Assembly: GCA_051453625.1 (NCBI GenBank)
Contig: JBOZIK010000001.1
Location: forward strand, 48,614,853 to 48,651,290
Direction: 5' to 3'
Origin: Welwitschia mirabilis
Lineage: Eukaryota
Length of the DNA: 36,438 nt
Every line of letters starts with the position of its first letter. Position 1 is the first letter of the stretch. Position numbers and translations under genes: made by a program. Shown here in pieces: positions 12,078-35,490 of the stretch. The notes under the pieces are model-generated. The model had not been told where the DNA came from. It did not search any database and was given only the letters and a program-made list of their open reading frames with translations.

Positions 12078-12127
12078 TAAATTGGCTGGAAACACTTGAT
12101 ACAAATGTCAATATTTATATATTAACA
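12078..12127 (-). repeat. Terminal fragment of a third LTR-A copy, abutting an N gap
   Basis: aaattggctggaaacacttgatacaaatgtcaatatttatatattaaca matches 26400-26448, and is followed again by the PPT and 3' region. Confidence 0.8.
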
Positions 12128-12344: not shown

Positions 12345-13379
12345 GTGGTTATTTGATGGAGGTTTAATGAGCTATTTTATAGGACATTTGCATAGGTTTA
12401 GGTGCAATTCTGAGGATTTTGAAGAACTAATAGAAGATCTCAGAAATGTGCAATTCTTAGCAAGATTTAAGGCATTTAAGACACATTTTGATACATAGAT
12501 ATTTAGAGAAAGAGTTCTAATAAAAAGGCTAAGCTTCTCATTTAATTTCTATTAAAGAAGATCGTCATCCCCTTTGTTTTTTAAATGACATATAAGACGA
12601 TGACACCATTACATGCTAATGTGGACTACTAAATCATCTACTGAGTCACTTGGTAATAAGCTATCATCCCCATCATCATCTGGATAATAGTCAAGATGAC
12701 ACTAATATTGTAAGTGACTCTAATAGCTGACCATTGACCATTTTGTCTGTTTCTTATCTGTAAAAGATGCATTTTTAAAGTGCCTTCTGTTTGTCATTTT
12801 CTGCTGTGTTTTCCTATAAATAAGTTCCCCTTCGATTCTCCTACTTATTTTTGTTGCATTAAAAATTCTCGTGATAGGAAATCGAAGGGCGGGAGATTCA
12901 TCCTAAGTGTTACAGAAACATGTTCCCTTGGTGAAGAGCTATGTTATTTTGTAATCTAGATGTTGTTACTCTTTAATATAAACTTAGTTTTCATGTTTGC
13001 ATATTAGGTTATTAGATTTTCCTTATGATTTGTGTTGCCCTTGATTTGGTAACAATTTCTTAGGTGATATAGATCACCAAGGGTAGCCTTTATTAAGACT
13101 GAAATAAAGTAGATTAATTTCATTTTGCATTACATGTAGATTAGTTGCATTTTGCATTTGCATTACATCCTTTATTTTCTACATTGTTCTTTCATTTTGA
13201 TTACTTTATTTCTTTGTGAAAAGCAATCCAAGTCTCATCTCATAGCCTTCAATGAGAATACGACATTCCGGTTAACTCCTACTCATACTAGTGTGTTGTA
13301 TTATATGAGAAATCTATTTATTTTATGAATGAAAGAGTCCTTTTGAATAGAAATGCTTGCATAAAAACACACCATAATA
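12328..13379 (+). repeat. 5' LTR of element B (~1.05 kb)
   Basis: 12627-13379 is colinear with 18524-19300, and 12328-12630 matches the reverse complement of 17914-18208. Related to 33915-35035. Confidence 0.92.
12815..12822 (+). promoter_or_regulatory. LTR TATA box (also at 18715-18722 and 34460-34467)
   Basis: cctataaataag is conserved at the same position in all three B/C LTRs. Confidence 0.7.
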
Positions 13380-13381
13380 AA

Positions 13382-13400
13382 TTGGTGTTGTTACCAGGAA
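13382..13400 (+). promoter_or_regulatory. PBS of B, tRNA-Asp type (degenerate)
   Basis: ttggtgttgttaccaggaa resembles the Athila PBS TTGGCGCCGTTGCCGGGGA, differing only by transitions, and lies 2-3 nt after the LTR end. Confidence 0.8.
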
Positions 13401-13854
13401 AGGCTACTGAGGAGCATAAGAGTTATCATTGTTTAGGTGAGTATATCGGATTTTTGTTCAGTTATTTATTCATAGCTATGTTGTATTTTATTTAGGAACC
13501 ATAGCTCTTCTGTCTGCAGTTTGTTAGTTTTAGTTTTCAGTAGTGAAATAGTGGTCATCCTCTCTGTCGTCCCCACAATAGATAGAATGATAGTCTGTAA
13601 TTTTAGTTTTTGTTTTCAAATTTTAATTTTTTGTAATAAAATCAGTCTCTATCGTCTCCTATGTCATCTGGATAACAAGGAGGATGACAGCTTATGTTTT
13701 TTTTTCTTTTAGTTTTCAGCTTTCCACTTTGCTATTTTCTATTTTTTTGCTTTCTCTGTTCATCGTTCCCTCTATTGTCCCTACAAAAAACAAGATGATA
13801 GCATTTTGTTTTTTATTTGTTTTTCTGTTATTTCTGTTTATAAGATACTGTGAC

Positions 13855-15600
13855 ATGGTTAGTCCAAAAAATAAAATATCATAGAAAAAGGGTTACTAAT
13901 AGAAGAAAGTATCAACAAAGGACTGGTCTACTTTAAAATATAATCAAGAACGCAATCTTTAGGTGCATACAATATCTTATTCGAGTTTAATTTTTGTTAA
14001 ATCATTAAAGAGAATAGAATTCAACCATCACTGTGTGCCTATCTTCATCTTGAATTAGATTTTCTTTTCCCCATTCTTCTCAAAAATAAATAGTGATACA
14101 AGGACCCTTAAGGACATTCTTACTAAAAGAAGGAGAAATCCTAAGGAAAATAGTAAAAAAACTCTTCGAGAACTTCTTATAGAAAAAGGAATAACAACAA
14201 AAAATGACGTTGAGAGTAAGGATTGAGACCATTCCTCCTTTCAACTGTCTTATTATTTCCCCTTTCCTTTTCAAATTTCATACAGGAATAATAATTAAAA
14301 TCTTAGGGATTCAACCTAATATAATTACTTTTATCCATCTCATCCATCTCCCATGCATTACTATGAAGAAGAAACATCTCCCATGAATTACTATGAGGAA
14401 GACATGATTGATGTAATGAAGAAAAGTCTAGAAAATACCAAGAAAAGCATAGAACATACAAACAACAAACTAGAGAAGTTGGTTCAAATCCTTCAACAAA
14501 ATTTATTACAAAAAATAAGGTTCTCTTATAATACAAAAACCTCAAAGCTATCTTGCTTTATCTTATCTTGAGGAAAATAAGGACAACTTAGGAATAAGTT
14601 ATAATGATTTTTACTTTCAAATAGAGAATGAAATTTTGGATCAAAGTTCAACATCTTACCCATTAGGAGATGAGTAAAAGGAAAACAACAACAATTTAAC
14701 TATATCTTTCAACAATGAAGATGAGGATGATATTCATTAAACGATGATATTGAGGTATTAGATTATATCCTTGAAGCCCGTTTATTAGATAAAGAATACA
14801 TTCATGAAAAATTTAAAAATTTCTTAATCTATAATAGACATAATGATTGCATTTCTCCTTCTCATGGAAATAATAAGATGTAATAAGATGATAAGTATGG
14901 TGAAGAAGAAGAGGATGATAACATTGAAATATTAGACCATATCCCTTATTTTCACATACTTTACAAAGATGAAGGAGTTCCACGTAAATAGAGGCTTAAC
15001 TTTTGAGATTAATAGAGATAGCATTGAGACAGAATCAATGGAAAAGATTAACTTAGTGACAATAACTTAAATAAGGATTACAGTTTAGAGTTGACAAAAT
15101 TATTTGGAGAGGAAGAGGAGTCAGACCAAGAAGCATTACAACATCCTTCATTACATAATCAACACAATGACTACTTTCCTTTCTATAATCTTTCTAATGA
15201 TCTTTTTGAGGAATCTACTAACTTAGAGAAGAAAAATAATCCTCAACAAAATGAAAAAGAAGAGTAAGATATAGTCAATAATAAAGAAGAGGAATATATG
15301 ATTAATGAATAAAGAATTTAAACAAGAAACTCTCCAAATCACATCCCTGTCCTCAAAAGTAATGAGACACATTATCTTGAGGACTTAACTCCAAAAATCT
15401 TCCAATCCTTTTCTTTGCAAATTTCATGTGCCACAAAAAGTAACATCTTTTCCTCTTTCTCAAAGACAACTCTACCTTGTGCTTCCATTAATCATTCTTT
15501 ACAAAAACAAGACTTGAGTTATCTTGAAACTCTAAATTAGGGCAAGCCATACCTTCTTGATTTAAATCCATGTTTAAAATTAAATTTTAAATAGNNNNNN
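13855..15600 (+). pseudogene. Decayed gag-related ORF with long acidic D/E/N-rich extension
   Basis: The start is homologous to the gag start of C (35491). Coiled-coil-like stretch in ORF 14353..14571, then GAA/GAT/AAT-rich codon runs. Many stops and frameshifts; the end is uncertain. Confidence 0.5.
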
Positions 15601-17252
15601 NNNNNNNNNNNNNNNNNNNNNNNNNNNNNNNNNNNNNNNNNNNNNNNNNNNNNNNNNNNNNNNNNNNNNNNNNNNNNNNNNNNNNNNNNNNNNNTGAGTT
15701 ATCTTGAAACTCTAAAGTAGGGCAAGACATACCTTCTTGATTTAAATCCATGTTTAAAATTAAATTTTAAATAGCTTCTTAGGTATATAAAACCTATTTT
15801 AATCACTCATCCTAATAAGTTTCTCACAAATTCTTGGATCTCAAATAATACCTCCCATGTTTAATATCAAGCTGTGAATGCAATTTATGTTTCAAATCCT
15901 TTATATTATGATTTTGATAAGAGATTGTTTTTCCATAAGTTGTATGAATTTTTTATCTTTTATATTATTGTTAATTCTTATGGAAATAAAATTTCATGTG
16001 CTCATGCAAATTGAAAAAAGCCTTGTCTTCTTAAAAATTTATGTCTTAAATCAAATGATAGAAACCATTTTCAAGAACCTTCAAAATCATCTTGGATACT
16101 TTGTTTTGGACCCTTCTCACATGCTTTTTCTAATGATACTTGGGATTCACAAAGTTTTCATAAGAGATTAATTGACACTTATCAGTCCTTTATCTTTTAT
16201 TTGAATTATGAAATTTGTGCTATCAAAGTATTATCTTTGTATTCTCTCTTCTTACAATTGATCTTACTTAAAAATGATTGCATACCTTTTATATTTTATC
16301 AATTAGTAAACATCTAGTTTGGACCTTATTTCTCTAAAAGAATGCAACATCTTAAGACCATTGAAATAGATCCTTCATTTTTATTTTTCTTTTCAATAAA
16401 AGTGTCGATTAGATTCTTAGGATTTGAATAAAGTTTATTGGTTTTAATGCTTTCTCTTTACTTCTTATGATTTTTACTTTGATTTTGTTTTTAACTTTAT
16501 ATTTTGATTTTCTGTGTGTGTCATTTCTTCTGTCATCCCTATGACAGTCAAGAAGATACTCTTTATTTTTCATTTTATGATGTCCATTTTTTGTTAGACT
16601 TTCACTTTCTGTTTTTATTTTTTGTCTTTGTCGTCTTGCATGTCGTCTGGACGATGAGAAGAATAACCATTAGTTCTTTTTAAATTTTGGTTTTCTATTA
16701 TTTTGAAAAAATACATTCTAATAGCTTTATTGAGGTTTTTGACTTGATCACTTAAGAATTTCAGAAAGTTAATGAGCAAATACTAAAAATATTTGAGCAA
16801 CAATTTGAATTTTCTCTTATCTTTTTCCTTTGGAGTTCATTATGGCATTACTTGATCATATTTCAAATATAACTTATGTATTTATTTCCATGATTATTAT
16901 TTTGACTTGGGTATTTTATAGTGGTAAGATTAGATTCACCCAATCTTAATACATTCACACATCTATGAACTTCAATATGAAGGAAGATGCTTTTTTTTTT
17001 TTAATGTTTTTCTCAATGATGAAAAGGTCTCAGATTGTTTAAGAGTGAAATAAGATCATGATGTTTTATATTTGAGATATTTTTAAAAACATGGTTACCA
17101 TAATGTCATACTATAAGTACACCAATGCAAATATTTTTGAGAGAAGCCTTTGGTAATGTAATATGATAGCCATGAAATTCTACTGGAAGGTTAGTTGGCC
17201 ATGCTTCACAAGTTCTTACTTCTTTAATGGTGGCTGCACTCCTCTTATCAAG

Positions 17253-17283
17253 GATGATAATAATAATAATAACAACAACAACT
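17253..17283 (+). repeat. (GAT/AAT/AAC)n trinucleotide microsatellite
   Basis: gatgataataataataataacaacaacaact. Confidence 0.85.
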
Positions 17284-17832
17284 AGGAGGCTAAGGGATAA
17301 TGGTATTCCTGGTATTACCATAAGCATTGCTCGTTTCCTAGACTCTTAGTCTTTCCATATGATCATCTCATTTTTTGAGATTTAGGTGTTTGTTTTGAAA
17401 TATTAGTAGGTGAGTTTATTTTTGAGTAATTCATTGGTCTGATCATTCATTGTTTAAAGCATTTTAATCTAGCATCATCATAACCACTACCTTATCACAT
17501 GGAATTTTTTATACATCAAGTTATGTGTTTTAAAAGCAAGTGATATTATGATTTCTTTCATGAGAGTCTGCTAGGTTGAAATATCAAATAGATATGTTAT
17601 CTTTTCTTTATGTTATCTTATATCCATTCTTTTTGTTTTCTTTTGCGGTTTGGTTAGTTATTTCAAAGTCATTACTGTATTTTCTTATCTTAATGGTTTC
17701 CTTACTTAGTTTTCAATAAAGAGTTGACTTCTTGCCTAAATAAATATTTTTTATGATGTTTATTTTTCATTTTTTTGAGTTCTTAAAATTGCTCATAATC
17801 ATTTTGTAATGAAACATTTTCATTGTCCACTC

Positions 17833-18456
17833 TTTTTTTTACTTGTCAGGATATTTTATCTATCTATATTTTTCAAATCCGACATTTCTTTACTCAACTT
17901 TACATTTCATTTAGAAGTAGTCCATATTAGCATACAATGGTGTTATCATCCTACATGTCGTCTGGATGACAAAGGGGACGATGGTCTTCTTTAATAGAAA
18001 CTAAAGGAGAATCTTAGCCTTTTTATTAGAAAGCTTCCTCTAAAGCTCTATGTATCAAAATATGCCTTAAATCTTACTAAGAATTGTACATTTCTGAGAT
18101 CTTCTATCAATTATCCAAAATCCTTAGAATTGCATCTAAACATGTGTAAATGTCCTACAAAATAGCTTATAAAACCCCATTAAATAACCACAAATTAGTA
18201 GCGCAACATAGCCCTCCACTTAGCCTTTTCCAGTCCCTAACAAAAACCAAGTAAAAAATCACAATTGCAAGCTAATTTGTCTTATAAAAAATCAATCTAG
18301 AAATTTTAAAATAGGCTCATGAAACACATCACATAACAAAGTAATAATAATGCATAATGTGTATGAAAATTTTTTAAAATTTTATCTCATGAAAGCTCAA
18401 AATTTTTATGAAAATTGAGCCATAAGAATGGTTCTTACCCCCCTAAGTAAAAAAAA
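17833..18456 (-). other. Inverted segment holding the PPT and first part of the 3' LTR of B
   Basis: The LTR start reads on the minus strand from 18208, with the PPT gaaaaggctaagtggaggg at ~18230-18212. The segment is flanked by a 12-bp inverted repeat ttttttttactt / aagtaaaaaaaa. Confidence 0.85.
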
Positions 18457-19300
18457 TACGTCCCGTATTGGATAATAAAGCAAAGGACATAGACAGGAAT
18501 AAGAAGGCAGAAGATGGATATTTTGCTGAGTCATCTATTTAGTCACCTTTTGTAATAAGTTGTCGTCCCTATCACCATCTGGATCATAGTCAGGACAACA
18601 CTGACATTGTAACTAACTCTAATAGTCAACCATTAATCATTTCATTTGTTTCTTATCTATAAAAGAGCGCATTTTTGGAGCACCTTCTGTTTGTTATTTT
18701 CTGTTGTGTTTTCCTATAAATAAGTCCCTCTTCGATTCTCCTACTTATTTTCATTACACCAGAAATTCTCGTGACAGGAAATTAAAGGGTGGAAGATCCA
18801 TCTTGAGTATTGTAGAAAGACATTCCTTTGGTGGACGACTATGTATCCTCCATTGAGGCCCAACTATTTTATAACCCATATGTTGTTACTCTTTAATATA
18901 AACTCATTTTTCATGTTTGCATATTAGTTTGTTAGATGTTCCTTATGGTTTATGTTACCCTTGATCTGGTGATAATTTCTTGGATGATATAGATCATCAA
19001 GGGCAGCCTTTGTTAAGACTAAAAGAAAGTAGTTTAGTTTTGTTTTGCATTGCATATAAATTAGTTGCACTTTACATTTGCATTGCATTCTTTATTTTAT
19101 GCATTATTCTTTCATTTTGGTTACTTTATTTCTTTGTGAAAAGTAATCTAAGTCTCATCTCATAATCTTCAATGATATAATAACATTTGGATTAACTCCC
19201 ACTTATACTAGTTTATTATCTTGTTTGAGAAATCTATTTTATTTTATGAACAACAAAATCCTTTTGAATATAAATGCTTGTACAAATACACACTGTAACA
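18457..19300 (+). repeat. 3' LTR of element B, non-inverted part
   Basis: Colinear with the 5' LTR from 18524. Ends ...CTGTAACA followed by the TSD. Confidence 0.9.
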
Positions 19301-20509
19301 TGCGTCAAGTGTGTGAACGATATAAGGTGAAAATTGTATGACCAATTTTATGTGATTAAGACATCAAACCAAAAATGTTTAGTGAAAATCAAGATGCCAC
19401 ACCCCCTAATCAAGACTCGATTATCCTCAAAGTTTATGGTAAAAATGTTAAGTTATTTGAGAGAATAGGTGTAGATGGATTGGGAAGAGTTCTTTTGTTG
19501 AAAAAAATGCAATTTAAACTAAGGAAGAAGGCAAGCTATTTTCAATCAAACATGTGCTAAGTGGAAGAACTATTTGCATAAATAGTTAATGCTTTAGGAG
19601 TTATTTCTTATGAAAATAATATAGAGTGTAATGTAGTGAAGTGATGCAAGGTAAATGAGATGGAAAGTGCATAAATGACGTGAAATTAGAAACCAATGAA
19701 TAAATAAGTAAACCATCCTAAGTTATTAGCCCTTTATGATATTTTTGTGTTTTTTCAATGGATCGCATTATCAACCAAGTTAAGTTTTAACCAATTAACC
19801 TATAGGGATCTAAGGAATCAATGCAAATCCTAAGTGTAAAAATTAAAAGACAATAGTTCACATAAGACTGCTAATTCCCACCTTTTTGTTTCTTTATTTT
19901 TTATTTCTACCTTTGCATATATCCTTAGTATCATACCTTTAAACCACATTGAGCATCCAGTGTTAAGACATTTTCTACTAATAGAGTTAACTATGTTGTA
20001 TTATGTAAAAATCAATGCTACATTACCAGTGAGGATTTATAGCCCTGATATAGTTGAACATGTCATAATTAAATCATTAGAGCTACATTGCTAATAGGCA
20101 TCCATAACCTTGGTGCAGTTAATTAAACCCAACTACATGATTAGTGTTATGTTCTTTTGGAGAAGAGATATATCATTTTCTTTTCTTCATCTTCCCATGG
20201 TCATTTTTTAATGCACTTTTAGGGGGTCATTAGTTCATTAACATTGTTAAGATAAATCTTGTCCCCATTAAAGGATTTTTACTTAAAGAGCACATGCAAA
20301 GGTAAATCCCACCTTTGTAACTAAGTTTCACCACAACTAGTGACTCTAAACAAATGTGTTCTTAACTAATACTTAAAATAAGTGTTTTTCCCCCTTAAAA
20401 ACCCATAAATAAACTTGATCTTAACCATTACTTAGGTGATAACGCGATCACTTATTATTAATTTTTGTTTTAAGGGCATTTAACGAGATCAATAAGTCTC
20501 AAAAACTCA

Positions 20510-20630
20510 TGGGTTGATGGTTTGTGTGAATGGTTTGTGTGAATGGTTTGTGGGTTTGATGGAGTGGTTTGTGTGAATGGTTTGTGGATTTGATAGAGTG
20601 ATTTGAAAATGAATTTAGTGAATGATAAGG
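20510..20630. repeat. Short tandem repeat (13-bp tggtttgtgtgaa and variants) just downstream of integrase
   Basis: ggtttgtgtgaatggtttgtgtgaatggtttgtgggtttgatggagtggtttgtgtgaatggtttgtgg. Confidence 0.85.
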
Positions 20631-20654
20631 TTCAAAAGAATGTTGAAATGAGTG

Positions 20655-21850
20655 ATAATGTTTCAGATGGTATCCATTAAATTTAAGGAGTTTAAGGTTT
20701 TGGGGATTTCCAATGAAAATAATTTCATGTGGTAAAACCTTTTCTATTAAGAAGGGTCCTTTCCACTTAGCCATTAATTTGCCTAAAAAAAGATGTAAGT
20801 TTGAGCTATATAGCAAGATTAGTTTCCCCTCTTGAAAAGATTTTCTAAGGATATGTTGATCATGGAACTTCTTCATCCTATCCTTATTTATTCTCATGCT
20901 ATCATAGGTGTCATTCTAATTTCGTTTAGTTCATTGAGTTGTATGATCCTATTTTGCTTTGCAACTTCTAGGTTTATATTCTTTATTACTCAGTAAGCCC
21001 TATGTTCAAGTTCTATAGGTAAATGACATGTTTTACTATAGACTAATTGAAAAGGTAACATCCCTAAGGGTCTTTTATAATCTATGTGGTATGTCCATAA
21101 GCCATTGTTAAGTTTGAAGAACTAGTCTTTTCATGTTGACTTTACTACTTTCTAAAGGATTTTCTTAAGTTTCCTATTTATAACCTCAACTTGTTTACTT
21201 TTTTGTGGATGATAAGGTGTTGCAAATTTATGTGTAACTCCATATTTAGTAAGAAGGATGTTAAATATTTAATTACTAAATTGTGTTCCTCCATCGCTAA
21301 TTAAAACACATAAAGAAAATGTCTTAACTTATTTTAGCATCATTTGTTTGATAAGCACATGCTTTAACCTATTTATTTATGTAGTTAAGACAAATAAGGA
21401 TGTATTGATTTCCATTGGATGATGGATAAGGGCCTTGAAAATCAATTGTTCATACATTAAAAGGTTTAACAATAAGGATGGGGTTTAAATCCATTATTTA
21501 TCTACATGAAAGACTTCCTAAACTTTGACAATTATCACAAGATTTTTAGTAGAAATAGAATTCTTTGAAAATCGATGGCTAGTAAAAACCTGATTGTAGG
21601 ATTTTTGTTATAATCTTATTAGTTGAGTAGTGGCCCCCATAAGCCTCGAAATGATAATATTTAAGTATGTTCTAAATGTCAGTTTTGAGGGATACATCTG
21701 CAAATAACTTGATCTAGACAGTATTTAAAATGATATGGGCTATCCCTAAAGAAATATTTGGCTTGGCTTAAAAACTTAATTTTATTATTAATGGTCTAGT
21801 GAAAAGGAATAGTTTTGGAGACTAAGTAATTGGCGATATCTACAAACCAA
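20655..21850 (-). pseudogene. pol: Integrase of element A, decayed
   Basis: [40 protein letters not shown] 20499..20897 has KDRMKKFHDQHILRKSFQEGKLILLYSSNLHLFLGKLMAKWKGPF...FNGYHLKHY. Confidence 0.93.
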
Positions 21851-21949
21851 GGTCTTTCTTTAATCGAAAAGAAATGTTTATCAAGAAAAGTGTCATCGAC
21901 AGGTAAAGATGTTTCTAGATTATTTGGAGATATGGATGAATGATAATCT

Positions 21950-23340
21950 ATAATAACATTATCAAAGCCTTTCTTATTCTTAATCTCTAAATTGAATTCT
22001 TGAAGGAATAGGATCCATATGATAAGACATGGTTTTGAATCTTTTTTAGCAAGGAGGTATCTAAGGGTTGAGGGATCAATGTAAATAACTACCTTAAATC
22101 CTAAAAGATATTACCTAAATTTTTCATGGGTAAAGACAATAGCTAGAAGCTCCTTCTCTATGATGATTTACTCGATTTAAGTGTAATTTAAGGCTTTACT
22201 GGCATAGTGAATTACAACTGGTTTTTTATCAACTCTTTATCCTAAAACTACTCCTACTGTGAAGTCACTTGCATCACACATAAGTTTAAAAGGTAACTTC
22301 CAATTAGGTGTTTGGATAATGGTCATGGAAATTAGTTTTTCTTTGAGTTATTCAAATGTGTTTTGACATGATAGAGTCTAGTTAAAGAAGATATCCTTAA
22401 TCAAAAATCATATAAAGGCTCAAAGATTTTACTGAAATCCTTGATGAACTGCCTATAATATCCTAGATGCCCTAAGAATAATCTAATGTCTTTTTATTTT
22501 TGAGGAATTAGCAGGTGTGTGATCAATGAGATCTTAGCTGGATCTGCTTGCATGCCTATCTTAGAGATAACATGTCCTAAAACTATACCTTGATTTACCA
22601 TAAGATGGCATTTTTTGAGTATAAGGGATTTTCAAATGCATCTTTTGAGAATACATTCAAAGCTATTCAAACAATGGTTAAACAAGATTTTATAAACTGA
22701 GAAATCATCCATTGAAATTTTAACACCTGAATCTAATAAGTCAGAGAAGATTCTGAACATGTAACATTGGAAAGTAATAGATGCATTGCATGGGCCTAAG
22801 GGCATTCATTTGTAAGCAATCATTTTATAAGGACAAGTGAAGGTGGTTTTGCCTTGATCTGCGGAAGTAATTTCAATCTGATTATAACTTGACTATCCAT
22901 CCAATAAATAGTAAAAAGGGTGCCCTACGAATTGTTCTAAAATTTGATCTAGGAAAGAAAGATGATAACAATCTTTTCTAGACCCAGTATTTAATGTCCT
23001 ATAATCAATACACATCCTTCATTTCACTACAGATTTGGTAGGAATAAGCTTATTATGCTTGTTAGGGACAAGGATAATTCCTGATTTCTCAACTATACTA
23101 TAAGTTGGACTTAGCCACTTTTTACCTACAATAGGATAGATAATCCCATTATTAAGAGGTTTAATTACCTATTTTAATAACTTCCCTCATAGTTAGGTTT
23201 ATCCTACATGATGCTTCAATGGATGGTTTGACATTCTCCTCTAAATAGATGTGGTGCATGCAAATACTGGGTTCAATGCCTCTAATGTCAGAGAGGGTCC
23301 ATCCTATTACTTATTTATTCTTACTTAAGAGTCTAAGCAA
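21950..23340 (-). pseudogene. pol: Reverse transcriptase and RNase H of element A, decayed
   Basis: GWTLSDIRGIEPSICMHHIYLEEN; *RMCIDYRTLN; FYYLLDG*SSYNQIEITSADQGKTTFTCPY; KISMDDFSV at ~22697-22721; RH motifs MCDASDFTVGVVLG, EKELLAIVF, WILFLQEFNLEI. Confidence 0.93.
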
Positions 23341-23453
23341 TTAATTTTCTTTGGATGGGGTGAGGAAGAATTTATAACTACTAGGAAGTGGAGTTATCCC
23401 AAAAGAAAGTGTATTTCATGTCATCAGGCAAGGGTTTAAGTTCTAAGTTAACT

Positions 23454-24645
23454 TCATTTTGGATTATAGGGCATGTTTCTTGAGAGTATTCTATCATTTT
23501 TGGGAGAATGAGAAGTGGATTCCTGATCCTCAATAAGGCCTTCTACTCTATCTATGTATTCTACCCCTTCATCATTTGAAGGTAACTTCATAGCATTAAA
23601 GAAGTTTAGCTCTATAGTCATGTTGCCAAATGAAATTTTCATTAATTCATTCCTATAATTGATCAAGGTATTGGAGGTTGCTAATAATGGTCTTCCTAAT
23701 ATGATGAACATTGTTTGGTTTGATATATCTTTATGTCAAAGACCATAAAATCTACTAGGAAGTAACAACCATCCACTCTAACTATGACATTGTAGATTAC
23801 TCTTAATGGGGTTTTAACAAAATTATCTACTAATTATAGTTGGAGTTTTTTGTTTTTGAGTTCTTTCAAGCCTAACTTCTTATAGGTTTTATAAGGCAGT
23901 AAGTTTACACTAGCTCATAAATCCAACAAGGCATGGTTGAGAGTTTTGTTACCTATGATAATGGTAATTATGGAACATCCAAGGTCTTTATACTTTGGTG
24001 GGAATTTCTTTTGGGAATCACACTCATTTGTTGAGCTTAAAAGACTTTACATTTAATGTTCATTAGCCTTTTTATAGTACATAAGTCCTTAAGGAATTTT
24101 GCATAGGAGGGGATCTATTTGATGGATTTTGAAATGGGAACATTTATTTTAACTTATTTAAAAATTTCTAGGGTTTTTGATTGTTTTTAATTATGTTTTA
24201 CTTCCCAAGCTGTTGGGAAAAAGGTAATGGTTCTTTAGAAATAGGTAATGGATCTTTGTTTTTATCCTTTTCCCTCTTTGCTATGGATTTTTGTTTATCC
24301 TTAGGCTTATTTTGTGTGGGTGGATTTTCTAGCTCTTTTCCACTCTTAAGGTATATAGACTTGGTCTCTTCTAGGTGTTTTATCCCTTTTATAAATCTAA
24401 CTCCTTTTTGGTTTGGTTGAGCGCTCATGGGGAGTTTCCCTATTTCTCTTTAATTTATTGATAAAAGAATGTGGTTAGTGATTTGGAGTTGGTTTATTGT
24501 CTATGTAAGCCTCTATTTAAGCCTTTGATTTGTTTGTTCTTGTCTTTGATTTTCTTGCATTTGTGTTTCATGAAATTTTTGAAAGTATCCTCCAACGAGT
24601 TAGACAAAATGATTTGATGGTTTGAAGATGAAGGGTAAGAATTAG
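23454..24645 (-). pseudogene. gag: Gag C-terminal part and aspartic protease of element A, decayed
   Basis: SNSLEDTFKNFM; ORF 24198..24428 has PNQKG...KSIYLKSGKEL; PPKYKDLGCSIITIIIG...ALLDL*ASVNLLPY; ORF 23454..23711 has IILGRPLLATSNTLINYRNELMKISFGNMTIELNFFN. Confidence 0.9.
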
Positions 24646-25203
24646 AAGACCTAAACGAAATAAAACAAAGGCATAAATAAAATGTTTTATTTCATTGCAA
24701 GTCAAAATAGATTTGTTAATCATGGATAAAAATTTTATAGTGTTAAGATCACAATGAAATAAAACAAAGGCATAAATAAAATCAAGCGAAATCATGAGAA
24801 AAATTTTAGAAGTTTTAAGGATTTACAAATGCAGTAAAATAAAGTAGATATGATGGACAATGATGTGAGTAAAAATGCAAAAAACATAGTAGAAAAGAAA
24901 AGCTTGTAATGCAATTGTAAAGTTCAATTAGAAAATTTTAAGTTTTCTTAACTCCAAAGAAACCTATAACAAATGTTAGACCTATAGAAAATAAGTTAGA
25001 AAATCAAAAACAAATCAAAAGAAAAAGGACCAATTTAGGATAACACTGGAAGGACCAATACCAACCATTGAAAAGTACAAAAAAGAAAAGTAAAAAGGAT
25101 CAATTAGATATCACTAGAATAAGGACCAATACCCACCATTGGGAAAATAAGAACTTGCAAAAACAAAAAACTATTACTCCTCTGAGCTGTTACTATACTA
25201 TTA

Positions 25204-25222
25204 TCCCTGACAATGGTACCAA
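25204..25222 (-). promoter_or_regulatory. PBS of A, tRNA-Asp type (degenerate)
   Basis: Minus strand ttggtaccattgtcaggga resembles TTGGCGCCGTTGCCGGGGA and lies next to the LTR end at 25227. Confidence 0.85.
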
Positions 25223-25226
25223 AATC

Positions 25227-26448
25227 TAATTAAGTCTGTAGTATAATGTTTAGATTTATAACTAGGTTAAAGACTTAGTTATCATCCTTCCTCAGGGATA
25301 GCATTAGGTATTGGCTATAATTAAACAAACTTTAATATTAATGCAAGATACAAAAAGGAAAGAAAAGAGAAGAAGAGATGAAATAATTCTTAGAGTTTGA
25401 ACTTTGTTTGAGAGAGGAGGAAATCAAACTAGCTCCTAGGTATCACTGATTTGTCCAAAGTAGTCCTTCACTCTAATGTTGTTCAATTGTTTTTTGGTAA
25501 AATAATCAAAAACCATTAAGTGCTTTTGGTCCAATTCATGGGGCATAATCTCATCCATCATATGATAAATAATGAATCCAACTAATACCTAAGTCTTAAA
25601 TAATAATAGAAAGTAAGGAATCTTAAAGTACTTAAGATCTATGAAATTAAAAGACTAAGTGATAAAGAGAAATTCATATAACTAAATTAAGATAGTTAAA
25701 AAAGTTAACTAAGCATCCTAATTATGATATTACTCATGAATCAAGATCAAAGAAAAGCAACTTTTGTATTACAGAAAGAATAACTTTATAGAAAAGAAAG
25801 AAAGAAGTAGGAAAAACTCTTCAAGCAATTCTTAAAAACTAGCTTACTCCCCCAAAGAGTCGCCTAGAAATCCATCACAAGTTAATGCTCCAAAGTCTCT
25901 AATTTCTCCAAGGCAAAGGTGAATATAATAAAGAGTTCAAGGTCCTTTGATAAGGAGAGATTTAGGATGAGGTTGGTTACATTCTTAGCTTATAGCATTA
26001 GGTAGAATCTTCATAATTTAGCATTAAGTAGATAAGATTCTATCTTATAGCATTAGGTAGATCAGATTCTATCCTCTAGCATTAGGTAGAATCTTTATTA
26101 TTTAGCATTTAATGGAGGTTGTCTTATTGCATTTGGTGGATATCATTACATAGCTCCAATGCCACCTCCACATGCCTCTACCACATGTCTTCAAATGCTT
26201 TTGCTATGTGTCAGCACCTCATATCTCCATTGCCATTGTGATTTTATGTGGAATTATTTCCATCTTTCACCAAGTATTCCAAAATATGGCTAAATATCTG
26301 TAATTATTATGAAGAAAATTATAATATTAATTTATTTTAAAAACAATAGAAGACATATTTTATGATTAAAACCATTAAATTAATGTCTTCATTTAAAATA
26401 AATTAGCCTAAAACACTTGATATAAATATCATTTTTCATATGTTAACA
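25227..26448 (-). repeat. 5' LTR of element A (~1.2 kb)
   Basis: Colinear with 9932-11149. Ends TGTTAACA followed by the TSD ATGTT. Confidence 0.92.
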
Positions 26449-28559: not shown

Positions 28560-31500
28560 CATTTCTATATTGCTTTTTGGTTTTTTTCTTTTTTATTTTT
28601 CTTTCAAATTAGTCCACTTTTACTCTTTTATTTTCTCCTCCTACCCCCTTTTTTCACTAGTGGATTAGTGTTAATTATGCCTAGCATTTTAATTGATGGA
28701 ACCTGATCTAGTGACTTTTTTTCTTTTTATTTTTTATCTTTTTTTAATTTCTTTCCTGTTTATCTCTTTATTTCTTTTTTTTTCCTTATAAAATATTATC
28801 TAAAATAGNNNNNNNNNNCATTAAGAAAAACAATAAAAAGGTTCTTTGTTCTATGCATCTTCTCTCTCTACTATCTCTTCTCTCTTCTCTTCCCTCATCT
28901 AGCTTAGGTAACTTCTTTAATAGGTACTTGAAAATAATTTTGAAGAAAGTCATCATCAATAAAAATCTCAAGAAAGTGCTTTATATCATACATTTTTCAT
29001 TCATGAAATTTTATGTCTTGCATTAGACTATATTCTAGTTTTTTATTTTTGCATTAGCCCTTTCCATTATCAACATTCAGTCCTTATCTACCAATTAGCT
29101 GTAATGACCTATTACCCTAAACTATCATTTACTCTAAGAGCTACATTTTCATACTTAACTAAATCTATTTTATATCAATTCACTAATGTCACAATCTTCC
29201 TTCACTGACACCGTAGACTTGCATCAAAATTCCTTCATCTTTATTGAATCTTACATTTATGTCATCTTGAATATTTTCATGTATCATGTGTATCCAAAAA
29301 TGTAACTTTTCTTAACTGTTTTTTTACATTTCATGATTTGGGAATGAACACTTGATAGTAGATTATATTGAATCCCTATCAATTCTAAAATGGAGTGAAA
29401 ACATAAAAGCCATTCACAAGAGAGACCCCAAAAAAGTCAAAATAACTCTAGAAGTAACTTCAACTTCAACTAACCTAGATAAATCTTGAAAGAATATCTT
29501 AAACCATAATGTCTACTTACACCCTTTTGTATTGTCCAACATTCTAATGCTAATAGAATTCACTTTAATCTAGCAATGATGCAACTTATTCCACATTTTC
29601 ATGGTTTAGAGTTTAAGGATCATTACTTTCATCTTAAGGAATTTGAGTATGTACCCTCTACAGTCCATCAAAGACTCGATATATCTAATGTACTTAAATT
29701 GACTTTATTTCTTTTTCCCTTAAAGAGAAGGTAAGATCTAAGTTATACATCTGAAAACCTAGTTCTATCACTACTTGGACTAAGCTTAATCAAGCTTTCT
29801 TTAGAAAGTTCTTCATTAATCATAAGACCAATGCTATTAGATGTGACATCATGAACTTTTAATTAAAGTATAGTGAAGCCTTTTCCTATACCTTAAAAAT
29901 ATTTAAGGATATATTTGTTTAATGTGCACAACATAGTTTTGAGTAAGTAGGAGTCATAAGTTTCTTTTATAAAGGACTTTCATCTTAACCATAGGTAACT
30001 TGTGAAGATGATATGTAGAGGTATATTTCTAGACCTAGAAATTAACGAAGCTTAGGATTTTCTTGAGATTATAGCTGAGAGTTCAAAGAATTAGGAGAAA
30101 CCTAATAAGCTAACATGATCACAACAACTAGTTAGGTCCACTAGTATCTTCAAAATACCTAATAATAATGAAGTTAACCAAAAGTTGGAATAACTTTCTA
30201 AAAAGATTAAAGCTCTTAATACAAATAATAATCTTATGACTCCACCACTTTTTCGTAATATTTATCTTATGAATACTCATGGAACTTCTAATTATCTATC
30301 CATCCCTATGTTTCAAGGCGTAGTGAAAGAATAAATCAATGCTATGAAATAATAATAGTAAAAGCAAAGAGCAAATAATCCTTATTCCAATACTTACAAC
30401 TTTAAATGTAGAAACCACCTACATTGTTCATGTGAATAAGATAATACTAGCCAAGACTTAACTAGTTAACTTAAGATTTTAAATCCTTTGTCAACTTCCA
30501 ACTCTTTAAATGCTATATTTCATATATTCATGAAATCTTAGCATCATATTAATACCTTGCAATAATAATTTAACTAATAAACCTATTCCATGGTGTAAAA
30601 TTTAGAGCAAGGTATGTAATAACTAAGCTAAACTACTGTATATATTCTTACATCACTCAATCAGCATAAGAAGTATAAGCTTCTTACTACACACGAGCCT
30701 AACCCGGGTAGCTGAAGTTGATGGAAGATTCATAAATTAAGAAAACCAAGGTTATCCATTTAAGAAGTGGGAAAGAGATCAACAAAGAGGTAGAAAAGAA
30801 ATAGATCAAAGAAGAAGAAGTACAACAAAGTGAGCCTCAAAGTGAGAAAAAGATAGAGAAGAAATATGGAGTAAAAAAAGTTATTCCAACCTTTAAAGAA
30901 CCCCCAACTTTCCTTAATAACTTAATAAAAATAAATTAGCTAAAAAGTAATAAAAAGCGCTATAAATTTTTAAGGAAGTAAGATTAAGATCCCTCTTTTA
31001 GAAGCTACCAGGAAAGTACTTTTCTATGCTAAATTCTTGAAATATCTTTGTGTTTTTGAAACAAGGATGAATGTAAAAAGTAAAGCCTATCTTACTCAAA
31101 GAACTACTATCACCATTTAAAACTAATCCCTATAATATATAGAGATTCAAGTTGCCCTACCATAGCCATTAAAATCAGGAACACAAACTTCTAACAAACC
31201 TTGTTAGATCTTAAAGTTAGTGTAAACATTTTACCTTATAGTAGCTATAAAGAACTTGAACTAAATGATTTTAAAAATACCTAGGTCCAATTATAATTTA
31301 CTAATAACTCTTTAAAAACACCTTGAGCATAGTAGAGGATTTGATTGTTTAAGTAAAAAATTGCTACTTTCCTATGGACTTTGTAGTTTTGAACATGAAA
31401 AAGATTAGAAGTTATACCATTTCAATCATCTTTAGAAGACATTTTCTTATTACTTCTAATCCTCTTATTGAGTGAAGAAACGGTCTTATGAATATTTCAT

Positions 31501-33914
31501 TTGGTAATATGATCATTGAGTTAAATATCTTTAATACATGAAGTAACCTAAAGATTTCAAAGGAGTAGAGTTTATTGAAAGTGTTGATGAAGATCTTGAT
31601 CTTTCTTCCTATGAGAAAAACATTTATCTTCTTTCTTTGTCTTCTTTGAACTATGATTACATGTNNNNNNNNNNNNNNNNNNNNNNNNNNNNNNNNNNNN
31701 NNNNNNNNNNNNNNNNNNNNNNNNNNNNNNNNNNNNNNNNNNNNNNNNNNNNNNNNNNNNNNNNNNNNNNNNNNNNNNNNNNNNNNNNNNNNNNNNNNNN
31801 NNNNNNNNNNNNNNNNNNNNNNNNNNNNNNNNNNNNNNNNNNNNNNNNNNNNNNNNNNNNNNNNNNNNNNNNNNNNNNNNNNNNNNNNNNNNNNNNNNNN
31901 NNNNNNNNNNNNNNNNNNNNNNNNNNNNNNNNNNNNNNNNNNNNNNNNNNNNNNNNNNNNNNNNNNNNNNNNNNNNNNNNNNNNNNNNNNNNNNNNNNNN
32001 NNNNNNNNNNNNNNNNNNNNNNNNNNNNNNNNNNNNNNNNNNNNNNNNNNNNNNNNNNNNNNNNNNNNNNNNNNNNNNNNNNNNNNNNNNNNNNNNNNNN
32101 NNNNNNNNNNNNNNNNNNNNNNNNNNNNNNNNNNNNNNNNNNNNNNNNNNNNNNNNNNNNNNNNNNNNNNNNNNNNNNNNNNNNNNNNNNNNNNNNNNNN
32201 NNNNNNNNNNNNNNNNNNNNNNNNNNNNNNNNNNNNNNNNNNNNNNNNNNNNNNNNNNNNNNNNNNNNNNNNNNNNNNNNNNNNNNNNNNNNNNNNNNNN
32301 NNNNNNNNNNNNNNNNNNNNNNNNNNNNNNNNNNNNNNNNNNNNNNNNNNNNNNNNNNNNNNNNNNNNNNNNNNNNNNNNNNNNNNNNNNNNNNNNNNNN
32401 NNNNNNNNNNNNNNNNNNNNNNNNNNNNNNNNNNNTTGGTTAATTCAGAGAAAAGAATAGGATAGTCCTCTTATGATCTAAAATGTTTGAACCCTAATAA
32501 GTATTCTCCCCATGCCTATTTTTAGTTTTCTAACTCATGTATGAAGTTTTATCATGAAAAACTTACTAGGCCTAATTTATCACTTAATCATTCATCCTAA
32601 GTTTTAAAACCCTAATCCTTCAAATTTTTCCTCTTCATCTATAGTTGAACACTTTCTTATGATCTCAACTAGGTTTTATTAAATGAATTTAAATTGGATT
32701 TGCTTACTCTATCCTTTAGAATGTTTGGATTAAGCTATGGAAAGTACAAATATGTTAAGGATGCTCCTTTAATACAAAACCCTTATCATAATCATTTATC
32801 TATTCATACTTTAGCCATTTTCACTCATTTAAATTACCTCCATAGAATCCTTCATCTTTCACATTTCATCCACCCCTTTCATCATCTTATAAGCTTACGA
32901 GACTTAATGATTCTGGATAATGGTCTTTTCTTTAATCCATGAATAAAGAGATCTTTATATTTTTAAAGTTTGGTTAAGATTTTATAGGTTTTTACTTTGT
33001 CATTAACTAGTTCTTTGAATTTTTAAGTTCTTTGTTAAAACTTCCATGCATTAGAGATATCCAATTTGGAATCAAGGAAAAAGATGAATTTTCTTATTTT
33101 GTGGTGTTTCTTTGTTTTAAAGAATTCATAAGGATGAGATTATTTTTCTATTCGACTAACAAGTAAATGATCCCCTTTCATGTGCTATGAATATTTAAAA
33201 ATAACAATAATAATAAGAGTAAAACAAATTAAGAGAAATCTTAAAGCTCTTTTAGCACATTTGTTTATGATCATTTCTATTCGATTTAGTTAACTAAATT
33301 AGGGCGATGGATGTCTACTAGTAATGTAGCTCTAATGATTCATTTGTAACGCATTCAACTACATTAGGGCTATAGATGCTCACTAGTAATGCAGCAGTCA
33401 ATCCTTCTTGTACAACATGTTAAATTAGTTGAAAGCAAGTATTAGAACACTTAATGCTTAATATGATCAAATTCTTGAAATTTGGTTGCCAATGGAAGAG
33501 GAAGGAAAAGGAATGAAATTAATGTAAAATTGGAAAAATATTTTATTTACTTGTTTTAATAAATTAAACTTGAGCTTTTGGGCTACTTGTGGATTTGCAA
33601 AAATTTAGTAGCTAATATTTCTCTTTGTCTTAGTAAAGAATCCACCAAAAATTTTATAAATAAAATAAGACCATTAGATTTCATTTCATCATGTCTCATT
33701 TATTTATAAAATGCATGGTAGGATTTATCGTCTCATTCATCCATTTCATCTCATTTCCATAACATTCATTTTTATCATTCATTTCAAAGTTATATCCTTT
33801 TGTTTTTCTTCCTATGAGAAAGAACATTAAGAAATTCATTGTGCTTTTGAGTGATTTTTGTAATTTAATCTTTCCATGTATGTCTAGATCTAATGTAAAT
33901 TTAACTTGGACCAT
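28560..33914 (+). mobile_element. Athila-like element D, internal region (no 5' LTR seen; 3' region interrupted by C)
   Basis: T-rich leader, then gag-PR, a 771-N gap, and a 3' region homologous to the reverse complement of A 19430-20300 (e.g. gtaatgtagctctaatgatt...ttcaactacattagggctata). Confidence 0.8.
29390..31664 (+). pseudogene. gag: Gag and aspartic protease of element D, decayed
   Basis: MMQLIPHFHGLEFKDHYFHLKEFE; LFLFSLKEK; PSSITTWTKLNQAFLRKFF; NPYSNTYN; VIHLRSGKEI; LLDLKVSVNILPYS at 31201; YFPMDFVVLNM; RNGLMNISFGNMIIELNIFN. Confidence 0.92.
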
Positions 33915-35035
33915 TGATGTGTTACCAAATTATGTGTATTTGATGGGGTATTATAGGCTATTTTAAAGGATATTTATACAAGTTTAGATGCAATTTTGAG
34001 GATTATGGAGAATTAATGGAAGATCTAAAAAATGTGAAATTATTGGCATGATTAAAGGCATTTAAGGTACATTCTAATGCATATGGATTTGGAGAAAGAT
34101 CATTGATGAAAAATGAAGACTTCATTTCAGTTAAAAAGACAAAGAGAACTTTAGTCAAGTTTGTCATCCCCACGACAGCAAGGATGACAACATTGTAGAT
34201 GCTACATGGGAATGCTGACCTAGACTAAAGTTGGAATTACTAAATCATCCTTTCTAAAGGGGTGTCATCCCCATGGTCGTTCCTACGACATGTAGGATAA
34301 CCACTGTAACTTTTAATCCATCATCCCCTTAGTCATTTCCAAGACAGCCAGGATGATACTTGTAGTTGCTAGCTGACCTTGATCTATTTCATCCATTTCT
34401 TTTCTGTAATTGAGCATCTTTTGTAGTGCCTTTTATGTGTTGGTTTTGTTTCTTAACCCTATAAATAAGACCCCCTTCGACTCTCCTCTTTATCTTCATT
34501 CGCACTAATCATTATTATGATAGGAGATCGAAGGGCTAGAGATCCATCTCGTGAGTTGTAGAAAGACATTTTCTTAGTGAAGGGCTATGCATCCTTCATT
34601 AAGGATTGGTTGTTTTGTAACCCATATGCTAGTTCTATTTTAATACAAAACTTAATTTGATTTATGCATTCAATTCTGTTAGATTTTCCTTATGGTTTAT
34701 GTTGTCCTTGATCTAGTGATAGTTTCATTGATGGTATAAGTCTTAAATGTAGTCTTTATTAAGGATAAAAAAAGTAGTTTAGATTTATTTTGCATAGCAT
34801 TTAGATTTAGTTATATTCGCATTTACATCTCATCTTTATTTCTTACATTATTCTTCAATTTCGGTAATGATATTCTTTGTGAAAATTAATTCTCATTCTT
34901 CTCTCATAAGTCTTCGATAAGATATGACATTTAGGTTACTCCCATTTATACTAGAGTACATATTTTACAATCTAGACATTTTGGTTAACAGGATTTAGAG
35001 TAAGACGTGAAGTTACAAAAATATGCATCACAACA
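33915..35035 (+). repeat. 5' LTR of element C (~1.1 kb)
   Basis: TGATGTG...CACAACA, colinear with 12328-13379 but more diverged. Confidence 0.88.
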
Positions 35036-35037
35036 TC

Positions 35038-35056
35038 TTGATGCCATTATAGGGGA
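35038..35056 (+). promoter_or_regulatory. PBS of C, tRNA-Asp type (degenerate)
   Basis: ttgatgccattatagggga lies 2 nt after the LTR end. Confidence 0.75.
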
Positions 35057-35159
35057 AGGCTATTAAGGAACATGAAAATGTGGTTATTTGGGTGAGTAAA
35101 TCAAATTTTTGTTTGATTATTTATCTTTAGTGACATTGTATTTTTAATTAAGAATTGTA

Positions 35160-35278
35160 GGTTTTTGATTTTTGTTTTTTAGTTTTTCAGTTTTCGATTT
35201 TTTTGATTTTCAGTTTTCTGTTTTCAGTTTTTCGATTTTTGGTTTTTTCAATTTTTGATTTTTTCATTTTTAGATTTC
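35160..35278 (+). repeat. Degenerate 7-8-bp tandem repeat (TTTTCAG/TTTTCGA) in the C leader
   Basis: tttttcagttttcgatttttttgattttcagttttctgttttcagtttttcgattttt. Confidence 0.8.
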
Positions 35279-35490
35279 ATATTATAGTTTTCTATTAGTT
35301 TTCATCATCTTCTATGTCATCCACACAACTAGAAGGATAACAAATTGTACTTTTGGCTTTCGGCTTTTGCTCTACTAAATTTCTATTTTCTACTTTTTGT
35401 ATTCGTCGTCCCCTATGTCATCCCCATGATAATTAGGATGGCTATTACTTATTTCTATTTTATTTTCTATTGTTTTTTATTTGTTGTGAT

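Follow-up and report, generated by a model that had tools for sequence, protein, structure and literature searches.

A fixed-register palindromic unit repeated in the LTRs and non-coding interior of an ATHILA-like retrotransposon family

Upstream of the TATA box, the LTRs of Sireviruses contain 8–32 repeated motifs of palindromic sequence, with more copies internally, and these motifs are interpreted as cis-regulatory (Bousios et al. 2010, PMC2829016; Bousios et al. 2016, PMC4728375). Repeats of another kind are reported for the Tat/Ogre LTR retrotransposons, which have hypervariable tandem repeats in their untranslated regions (Macas et al. 2009 as cited in Vondrak et al. 2020, PMC7004042). 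Here, we describe a 38-bp palindrome found 14 times in a 36,438-nt stretch of Welwitschia mirabilis DNA (the window), within two LTR retrotransposons termed B and C.

This motif is similar to the Sirevirus boxes in several respects. It is short, dyad-symmetric and present in many copies per element (9 in B vs 8–32 in Sireviruses), it clusters in the LTR upstream of the TATA box with further copies in the internal non-coding region, its sequence contains CpG and is specific to the family, and the part of the LTR that houses it is variable. However, its host is ATHILA-like (Ty3/gypsy) whereas Sireviruses are Ty1/copia elements, and the CGG-CCG core is absent from 14/14 copies, the half-site being GTCRTC. 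Moreover, the unit is a compound one of 38 bp with four half-sites in a 12/8/12 register instead of a single palindrome of 10–20 bp, and its internal copies lie in T-rich tandem units of the leader and mid-element, whereas those of Sireviruses are described upstream of the env gene. As for the Tat/Ogre repeats, the likeness is restricted to seven of the 14 copies: short head-to-tail units, internal and non-coding, variable in number between members and thought to be born during replication. Here, unlike in those repeats, a palindromic core is conserved and also occurs outside the arrays, in U3, while the spacers are not conserved.

A parallel can also be drawn with the ONSEN LTR, which contains heat-shock elements, and with the untranslated leader of Drosophila copia, which contains dyad-symmetric enhancer repeats. 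The resemblance concerns alternating half-site clusters in U3, or repeated enhancer units that lie downstream of the transcription start and tune expression through their copy number, but the 38-mer matches no known factor or motif. The earlier note on this DNA had drawn an analogy with the VANC target motifs of VANDAL transposons, which, like DNA-transposon subterminal repeats, are bound by an element-encoded protein. A short motif is indeed dispersed over the non-coding parts of one family in both cases; B, however, encodes no recognisable protein, and the Sirevirus LTR palindromes offer the closer analogy.

Palindromic boxes that recur upstream of the promoter in LTRs have been described as a hallmark of Sireviruses, within Ty1/copia. 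Here, an analogous but unrelated and more elaborate four-half-site box occurs in an ATHILA-like Ty3/gypsy family, which suggests that this box architecture is a recurrent solution among plant LTR retrotransposons. The motif is regulatory-looking and only moderately new. The non-autonomous B kept little besides cis signals, and the 38-bp motif provides a probe for the factor, or the RNA role, controlling a very abundant family; ATHILA elements are themselves of current interest as centromere invaders. Since the copies in the window are old and decayed, the finding amounts to a lead rather than to a demonstration.

Host elements and location of the copies

B (12328–19300) is an insertion that is complete and non-coding, flanked by a 5-bp target duplication (TGTGT at 12323–12327, TGCGT at 19301–19305), and no Pfam domain was found in the six frames of 12078–19400 with stops read as X. 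Its 5' LTR (12328–13379, plus strand) starts with TG and has a TATA box, CCTATAAATAAG, at 12813–12824. A segment of ~600 bp (17903–18505, minus strand) is inverted and comprises the first ~310 bp of the 3' LTR (17903–18208) and the polypurine-tract region (18209 to ~18505). The remainder of this LTR (18506–19300, plus strand) contains a TATA box at 18713 and ends with CA at 19300. C is partial, running from about 33917 to the end of the window, and its analysis covered the LTR and leader region; its 5' LTR (33917–35035 with an approximate start, plus strand) has a TATA box at 34458 and is followed by a primer-binding-site-like stretch at 35039–35051.

In ATHILA elements, the LTR terminus is followed by an AT-rich spacer of 3–6 bp and by the primer binding site TGGCGCCGTTGCC (ATHILAfinder preprint). 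The B junction reads ...CATAATA / AAT / TGGTGTTGTTACC, a 3-bp AT-rich spacer thus preceding a primer binding site (13383–13395, plus strand) identical to that of ATHILA at 9 of 13 positions, with four differences that are all transitions. For C, 7 of 13 positions are identical and five of the six differences are transitions. B and C thus both have an ATHILA-type primer binding site; both are decayed, and the match is approximate. The neighboring gypsy element A, in which RNase H precedes integrase as in the Ty3/gypsy order, has a primer binding site of the same type.

All the 38-mers listed in the earlier note are present in the window at the coordinates it gave, nine in B and five in the partial C, and their clustering upstream of the TATA box, in the leader and in mid-element was borne out. 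They occur 138–307 bp upstream of the conserved TATA box CCTATAAATAAG in the three LTRs, 171–379 bp past the primer binding site, and at one mid-element location. With a single exception, mentioned below, they are on the plus strand. In the U3 of the B 5' LTR, the copies at 12564–12601 and 12663–12700 lie 249 and 150 bp upstream of the TATA box. Their partners in the 3' LTR are found at 17945–17982, in the inverted first part, and at 18562–18599, in U3, 151 bp upstream of the TATA box. The former is on the minus strand only because the ~600-bp segment was secondarily inverted. C has three U3 copies, at 34151–34188 (307 bp upstream of the TATA box, with a degenerate outer left arm), 34264–34301 (194 bp upstream, without counterpart in B) and 34320–34357 (138 bp upstream). 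The sites 12564, 17945 and 34151 are homologous, as are 12663, 18562 and 34320.

The B leader contains a tandem array (13519–13823, plus strand) of ~100–110 bp units, each made of a T-rich spacer and the 38-bp core. Its three cores are at 13554–13591 (171 bp past the primer binding site), 13651–13688 and 13762–13799, the last two occupying the same sites as 35304–35341 and 35405–35442 in the leader array of C (265 and 366 bp past the primer binding site). A mid-element array of B (16454–16703, plus strand), homologous to the leader arrays of both elements, adds two cores at 16520–16557 and 16630–16667. The motif is therefore found at matching sites of the diverged members B and C, both in U3 and in the leader.

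Geometry and specificity of the motif

The 14 copies were aligned by MAFFT in 38 columns with zero gaps: the internal spacing is constant in every copy, as the earlier note had claimed. Compared with the CpG-intact consensus, each 38-mer departs from 4–9 of its 25 specified positions, with transitions making up 81 of the 89 mismatches; a strict search for this consensus with at most 3 mismatches retrieved no match in the window. The N5 spacers, which had been presented as variable, are not free in sequence: the left one is rich in C, every copy (14/14) has A at position 31, and most have T at position 12.

We then looked at the half-sites independently of the copies. The window contains 51 RTCRTC and 30 GAYGAY hexamers, which form 7 same-strand pairs at 12 bp, and forward-to-reverse pairs at 20 bp (6), 32 bp (5) and 8 bp (2). 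Remaining distances up to 60 bp have 0–1 pair each, barring the offsets 3 bp off, where extra pairs result from the RTC-RTC periodicity. In a grid of 648 spacer geometries, a site being counted when at least 21 of 24 positions matched, the claimed geometry gave 12 sites whereas the other 647 gave 0.07 on average. The next-best geometries (6 sites) correspond to the same loci read 3 bp shifted. The half-site register of 12/8/12 bp thus outscores all its competitors.

Specificity was evaluated with a weight matrix from which each homology group was omitted in turn before being scored. The omitted copies score 24–47 bits, whereas the best non-copy site in the window, at 14550, reaches at most 10.7 bits and the highest score in 100 local shuffles is 15.1. 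Therefore, no copy was missed, and the motif is absent from the families of the window other than B and C, in agreement with the earlier note. A search for other recurrent palindromes in the window found none. Altogether, these data confirm that the motif is real, of fixed geometry and, within the window, specific to B and C.

Descent, conservation and CpG decay

U3 and leader copies have in common only the 38-mer and a few flanking bases. All copies display the same small asymmetries, which indicates descent from one unit, and a short right flank is also common to all of them. The flanks had been described as unrelated, which holds in part only. Each of the seven copies in the leader and mid-element forms the core of a tandem unit (self-match with a period of ~100 bp and 61.8% identity over 212 bp in the leader, 62.3% over 146 bp in mid-element), and the LTR copies include shared sites. 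The number of units differs between B and C, with three vs two in the leader and two vs three in U3. The idea that the motif is a mere relic of a ~100-bp tandem unit is thus half right: these copies are tandem, but they combine a conserved core with spacers whose identity is at chance level. Within arrays, the identity is 0.63 for the core (0.67 for its arms) vs 0.26 by chance, and 0.42 for the spacers vs 0.40 by chance; the spacers are 58% T, on the sense strand only.

This better conservation than the flanks is limited to the arrays. When the two LTRs of B are compared, or the U3 of B with that of C, the motif is no better kept than alignable flanks (0.71–0.79 vs 0.60–0.88; also ~66–70% for both), so no constraint is shown after insertion, and constraint before insertion is weakly shown. 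Half-site CpG positions (four in each of 14 copies, n = 56) comprise 27 of the GTCATC type, 5 of the GTTGTC type, 5 changed on both sides, 5 other dinucleotides and 14 intact. Since the decay is mirror-symmetric across the motif, a single-strand mutation bias is ruled out as its source. In our reading, the 27-to-5 asymmetry includes shared ancestry, and five of the six changes datable to after insertion go in the same direction, although such changes should be neutral. The survival of 14/56 motif CpGs is near the CpG observed/expected ratio of the window (0.19), and there is thus no sign of protection from methylation.

In two public DNA runs, ~18000–22000 contigs per run fell on 1.6 kb of B, and the family is very abundant. 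Bins holding a core have a contig depth several-fold above that of neighboring spacer-only bins (e.g. 1529 vs 147), and 71–78 contigs per run break exactly at the core borders 12663 and 12701. Across the family, the motif-bearing U3 segment is low-depth and variable (274–2400 vs 60000–90000 in conserved parts of the LTR), and some contigs combine one motif copy with the flanking sequence of another.

Possible roles of the 38-bp unit

We tentatively propose that the 38-bp unit serves as a repeated cis-element specific to one non-autonomous, ATHILA-like family of LTR retrotransposons, with half-sites that would be read as DNA. Its GTCRTC half-sites number four, a direct pair at 12-bp spacing being mirrored over a 2-bp centre, and these would most likely be recognized on double-stranded DNA by a candidate dimeric or tetrameric sequence-specific factor. 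Two or three copies located 138–307 bp upstream of the TATA box could form an upstream activating or enhancer module in U3, to which the leader and mid-element copies, parted by T-rich tracts, may add downstream sites. One ancestral unit would have spread inside the element through short duplications, segmental and tandem, that probably took place in reverse transcription. The operator-like array suggested in the earlier note is retained in that the evidence leans to independently conserved half-sites in fixed register that are read as sequence. Its element-encoded binding protein, on the VANC model, finds no support, as B has no recognisable domain in six frames; LTR retrotransposons are not known to encode such regulators, and a host factor seems likelier. 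It should be kept in mind that rapid turnover of the low-complexity T-rich spacers by slippage could give the contrast between core and spacers without selection on the core.

One could assume that the unit has no function at all and belongs to the hypervariable tandem repeats of non-coding parts of plant LTR retrotransposons, produced when illegitimate recombination or faulty strand transfer occurs during replication, the palindrome promoting pausing and template switching and thereby copying itself with short flanks. We consider this doubtful but worth attention. The ~100–110 bp tandem units, the single origin seen in the common asymmetries and short right flank, the different unit numbers of B and C, the low-depth variable U3 segment with contigs joining a copy to a foreign flank, and the post-insertion conservation not above that of flanks would all be in keeping with it. 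Moreover, Tat/Ogre elements are described with such repeats and such a mechanism (PMC7004042). However, it does not account for a conserved core among spacers at chance identity, for a core-internal spacing constant in 14/14 copies, or for core bins that are deeper than spacer bins genome-wide.

Alternatively, the genomic RNA could be acted on in cis by an RNA (or minus-strand cDNA) hairpin with a role in packaging, dimerisation or strand transfer. This hairpin would have a 7-bp stem, then an internal loop (4x4 or 5x5), a second stem of 5–7 bp and a short loop, with U-rich single-stranded linkers in the leader, and the non-autonomous B would retain it because a helper Gag must recognise it. 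All copies fall within the stretch predicted to be genomic RNA, namely in 3' U3, the leader or the internal region, all had a single orientation before the secondary inversion, and retroviral packaging signals reside in the leader just past the primer binding site. In addition, the T-richness of the spacers is confined to the sense strand, for which an RNA-level role would be the more natural explanation, and the 38-mers fold below background (mean of -8.1 kcal/mol vs -2.45, sd 2.2, for 446 background 38-mers). Yet the antisense strand folds slightly better (-10.7 vs -8.1), pairing within copies does not exceed column composition (78.6% vs 77.1% when shuffled, 71/500 shuffles being as high), and 59/500 shuffles reach the observed covariation score, the copies being old and few. 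Among 196 arm cells, G.T (20) and A.C (23) mismatches are equally frequent, so that, with neither covariation nor strand bias, the pairing lends no support to the hairpin raised in the earlier note; on copies this old and decayed, such tests have low power and say little about an RNA role in active elements. No Rfam match was obtained for the motif, the neighboring element A has no copy despite its primer binding site of the same type, and the U3 copies are at enhancer-like distances from the TATA box. We thus regard an RNA hairpin as rather unlikely. Pairing explained by column composition, with no strand bias of mismatches, fits independent half-sites better than a selected stem.

A bolder version of the DNA half-site reading would make the unit a dedicated operator. 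The GTCRTC half-sites would be bound by a dimer of dimers of one specific factor. The same sites would act as a transcription switch in U3 and, in the leader and mid-element arrays, as a platform for loading from which the T-rich tracts keep nucleosomes away, the non-autonomous ATHILA-like parasite owing its spread to this one protein-DNA code and Sirevirus-like boxes having arisen independently in Ty3/gypsy. We hold this to be improbable. Most unlikely of all is that the palindromes are a point of interaction with host defence, their hairpin transcripts giving 21–22 nt small RNAs and silencing: the 38-mers are able to fold, but 12–14 interrupted base pairs per hairpin are short for a Dicer substrate. 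The analogy would be with maize Sireviruses, for whose palindromes this was proposed and whose palindrome-rich LTR region is presented as a hairpin-capable siRNA hotspot (PMC4728375). The aligned RNA-seq reads are few and nearly all partial matches, an observation that is neutral with regard to silencing.

A compound palindrome of fixed geometry

The 38-bp motif is a real compound palindrome of fixed geometry, in which four GTCRTC half-sites stand in a 12/8/12-bp register, and it is family-specific. All 14 copies that the earlier note had listed were found at their positions. Since the window contains no site within 3 mismatches of the strict CpG-intact consensus, degenerate scoring was used instead; each copy shows 4 to 9 mismatches to the 25 specified positions, 81 of these 89 mismatches being transitions.

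The geometry was checked by three tests independent of the earlier list, namely hexamer spacing, a geometry grid and leave-out scoring. The 51 RTCRTC and 30 GAYGAY hexamers of the window pair on the same strand at 12 bp (n = 7) and in forward-to-reverse order at 20 bp (n = 6), 32 bp (n = 5) and 8 bp (n = 2), while other distances up to 60 bp occur at most once each, except for offsets 3 bp from the enriched ones. Of 648 spacer geometries, the claimed one gave 12 sites matching at least 21 of 24 positions, against an average of 0.07 for the remaining 647, and the runners-up (at most 6 sites) were the same loci read with a 3-bp shift. Together with the gap-free MAFFT alignment of the 14 copies over 38 columns, this confirms that the spacer lengths are invariant. 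Finally, when the weight matrix was built with a copy's own homology group left out, the omitted copies scored 24-47 bits, whereas the best site elsewhere in the window reached at most 10.7 bits and the maximum of 100 local shuffles was 15.1. Because the omitted copies far outscore all other sites, the list is complete and no copy lies outside B, a non-coding LTR element, and C, its partial relative from about 33917 to the end of the window. The grid and the leave-out scoring against shuffles rule out a chance or low-complexity artefact. A tiny mobile element or MITE is likewise rejected, the copies occupying fixed, matching positions in one orientation within B and C. No further recurrent short palindromes were found in the window.

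Host elements and descent of the copies

The window is a gapped draft of about 30% GC, full of decayed retroelements and strongly depleted in CpG (observed/expected 0.19). B (12328-19300, plus strand) is one complete insertion that starts with TG, ends with CA and lies between the two copies of a 5-bp target duplication, TGTGT (12323-12327) and TGCGT (19301-19305), which are one CpG transition apart. It interrupts an LTR that belongs to the neighbouring family A; a 109-bp tandem repeat at 12148-12344 is part of that A-type LTR (homologous to 11103-11235) and not of B. The 5' LTR of B (12328-13379, plus strand), with an invariant TATA box CCTATAAATAAG at 12813, is followed by a 3-bp AT-rich spacer and then by TGGTGTTGTTACC. 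According to the ATHILAfinder preprint, the conserved ATHILA primer binding site is TGGCGCCGTTGCC, after an AT-rich spacer of 3-6 bp; of its 13 positions, 9 are identical in B and the other four differ by transitions. A decayed primer binding site of the same ATHILA type is present in C and in A2, a decayed Ty3/gypsy element on the minus strand (19330-26448), where it adjoins 25229. A2, in which an RNase H and an integrase zinc domain were detected with stops read as X, the RNase H preceding the integrase, carries no palindrome copy.

No Pfam domain was found in the six frames of B with stops read as X, and B is thus non-autonomous or gutted. A Lys/Glu-rich, open-looking frame on the plus strand of its internal region (14300-15300), also without Pfam match, may be what is left of a coding sequence, gag-like or otherwise. 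An 80-bp duplicate (15515-15594 and 15695-15774, 97.5% identity) borders the run of 100 N at 15595-15694, as if two overlapping contig ends had been joined with a spacer; the gap would then be an artefact of assembly, with no sequence missing.

In U3, the TATA box follows the copies of the B 5' LTR (12564 and 12663) at 249 and 150 bp, that of the 3' LTR (18562) at 151 bp, and those of C (34151, 34264 and 34320) at 307, 194 and 138 bp. Leader copies follow the primer binding site by 171, 268 and 379 bp in B (13554, 13651 and 13762) and by 265 and 366 bp in C (35304 and 35405), and B has two more at mid-element (16520 and 16630). Copies 12564, 17945 and 34151 represent one shared site, and 12663, 18562 and 34320 another. 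Copy 17945 is reversed relative to its LTR partner 12564 because a segment of about 600 bp (17903-18505), comprising the polypurine-tract region and the first ~310 bp of the 3' LTR with its exact TG terminus at 18208, has been inverted. One breakpoint falls within the 61-bp gap that separates the two U3 copies.

Homology links the leader array of B to that of C (63.6% over 472 bp) and the mid-element array to both (62-63% over 240-292 bp); each repeats internally in tandem, about every 100-110 bp. In the C leader, the place of B's first palindrome unit is taken by a T-rich microsatellite-like tract (35158-35277, periods 7-38 bp), so that the number of array units differs between family members. 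U3 and leader copies have in common the 38-mer and a few bases on its right only. The flanks, described as unrelated in the earlier note, are so only in part. The idea of a relic of one ~100-bp tandem unit is borne out by half: the seven leader and mid-element copies are cores of such units, yet the spacers of these units are at chance identity. Since all copies share small departures from symmetry (a C-rich left spacer and an A at position 31 in 14 of 14) as well as the short right flank, the 14 copies are descendants of a single ancestral unit, and neither convergent nor 14 independent events.

DNA element, inert repeat or RNA hairpin

We tentatively propose that the motif would serve a non-autonomous ATHILA-like retrotransposon as a repeated cis-regulatory element at the DNA level. 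Another explanation, possible but doubtful, is that it is a functionless, self-duplicating tandem unit. Against this stand the seven array units, whose cores show a pairwise identity of 0.63 (arms 0.67) for 0.26 expected from composition, whereas their spacers (58% T) remain at composition level (0.42 for 0.40 expected). Contigs of two public DNA runs, about 22000 and 18000 in number, match 1.6 kb of B, and their genome-wide depth points the same way: core-bearing bins are several-fold above spacer-only neighbours (e.g. 1529 vs 147 and 1040 vs 274), and contigs end exactly at the borders of one core (75 and 78 at 12663, 71 at 12701). On the other hand, fast slippage of the T-rich spacers could exaggerate the contrast within the arrays, and no sign of constraint since insertion is seen in the B LTR pair (motif identity 0.71 and 0.79, alignable flanks 0.60-0.88), in U3 between B and C (motif and flanks alike about 66-70%) or in CpG survival (14 of 56, in line with background depletion), as expected for dead copies.

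The majority of wider-family contigs in both DNA runs depart from B at 12494/12495 and rejoin it at 12663; the stretch with the first U3 copy is thus subfamily-specific. RNA-seq reads also match 12354-12515 but run on into other sequence. Two RNA runs gave 208 and 56 matching reads, of which 202 and 54 match B only partly; such few and partial reads speak neither for nor against expression.

That the palindrome would act as an RNA hairpin appears unlikely. What speaks most in its favour is that the spacers are T-rich on the sense strand. However, pairing in the two stems (78.6%) hardly differs from that with partners shuffled among copies (77.1%; equalled or exceeded in 71 of 500 shuffles), the covariation score is matched by 59 of 500 shuffles, and Rfam gave no match on 12300-19400 at E ≤ 0.1. 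The 196 arm cells hold 20 G.T and 23 A.C mismatches, hence no wobble bias on either strand. Folding energies of the 38-mers are -8.1 (sense) and -10.7 kcal/mol (antisense), compared with -2.45 kcal/mol for background 38-mers; any decayed palindrome would fold this well. Covariation is thus not in excess over shuffles in these old, decayed and few copies; active elements may still use the motif as RNA.

The half-sites have 56 CpG positions in all, of which 14 are intact; 27 now read GTCATC and 5 GTTGTC, while 5 have lost both bases of the CpG and 5 show other dinucleotides. Shared ancestry inflates the count. Of the 6 changes that necessarily followed insertion, 5 run the same way. This decay is mirror-symmetric across the palindrome, which cannot be explained by a single-strand mutation bias and fits a half-site tolerating R at its fourth position. 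Altogether, the sequence evidence leans toward independently specified half-sites that would be read as DNA.

Comparison with known repeats

We know of no plant transcription factor site that fits the 38-bp motif. Full-text searches on Athila together with palindromes or inverted repeats brought up no description of such a motif in the main texts on ATHILA, nor was anything relevant found in the passages retrieved from the Retand (PMC11963269) and einkorn centromere (PMC11302176) papers. Of the systems described, the repeated palindromic motif of Sirevirus LTRs comes closest: each element has 8-32 dyad-symmetric, CpG-rich boxes, which form a cluster ahead of the TATA box, with further boxes upstream of env, and which were interpreted as cis-regulatory (PMC2829016). 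The B/C motif resembles these boxes in position, copy number and symmetry. However, it does not belong among them as they are described there: it lacks their CGG-CCG core, it is a compound unit of four half-sites, and its host is ATHILA-like. In maize, Sirevirus palindromes are reported to be a hotspot of sequence change, hairpin potential and siRNA targeting (PMC4728375); for the B/C motif, an interface with small RNAs seems very improbable. The array part also has a parallel in Tat/Ogre elements, whose untranslated regions contain hypervariable tandem repeats ascribed to aberrant strand transfer (PMC7004042).

Pattern scans gave 3 loci in viral contigs, all acidic coding stretches unrelated to the motif, and 33 in metagenome contigs, none similar to the window by BLAST and mostly in GC-rich bacterial coding sequence. 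One of these metagenome contigs, the AT-rich L013 (24% GC), carries at 1481-1580 unrelated GGTCATCCGG and CCGGATGACC repeats, both direct and inverted, spaced by 12 bp. They look like the iteron cluster of a small replicon; their half-site core and period are those of the motif, probably by coincidence.
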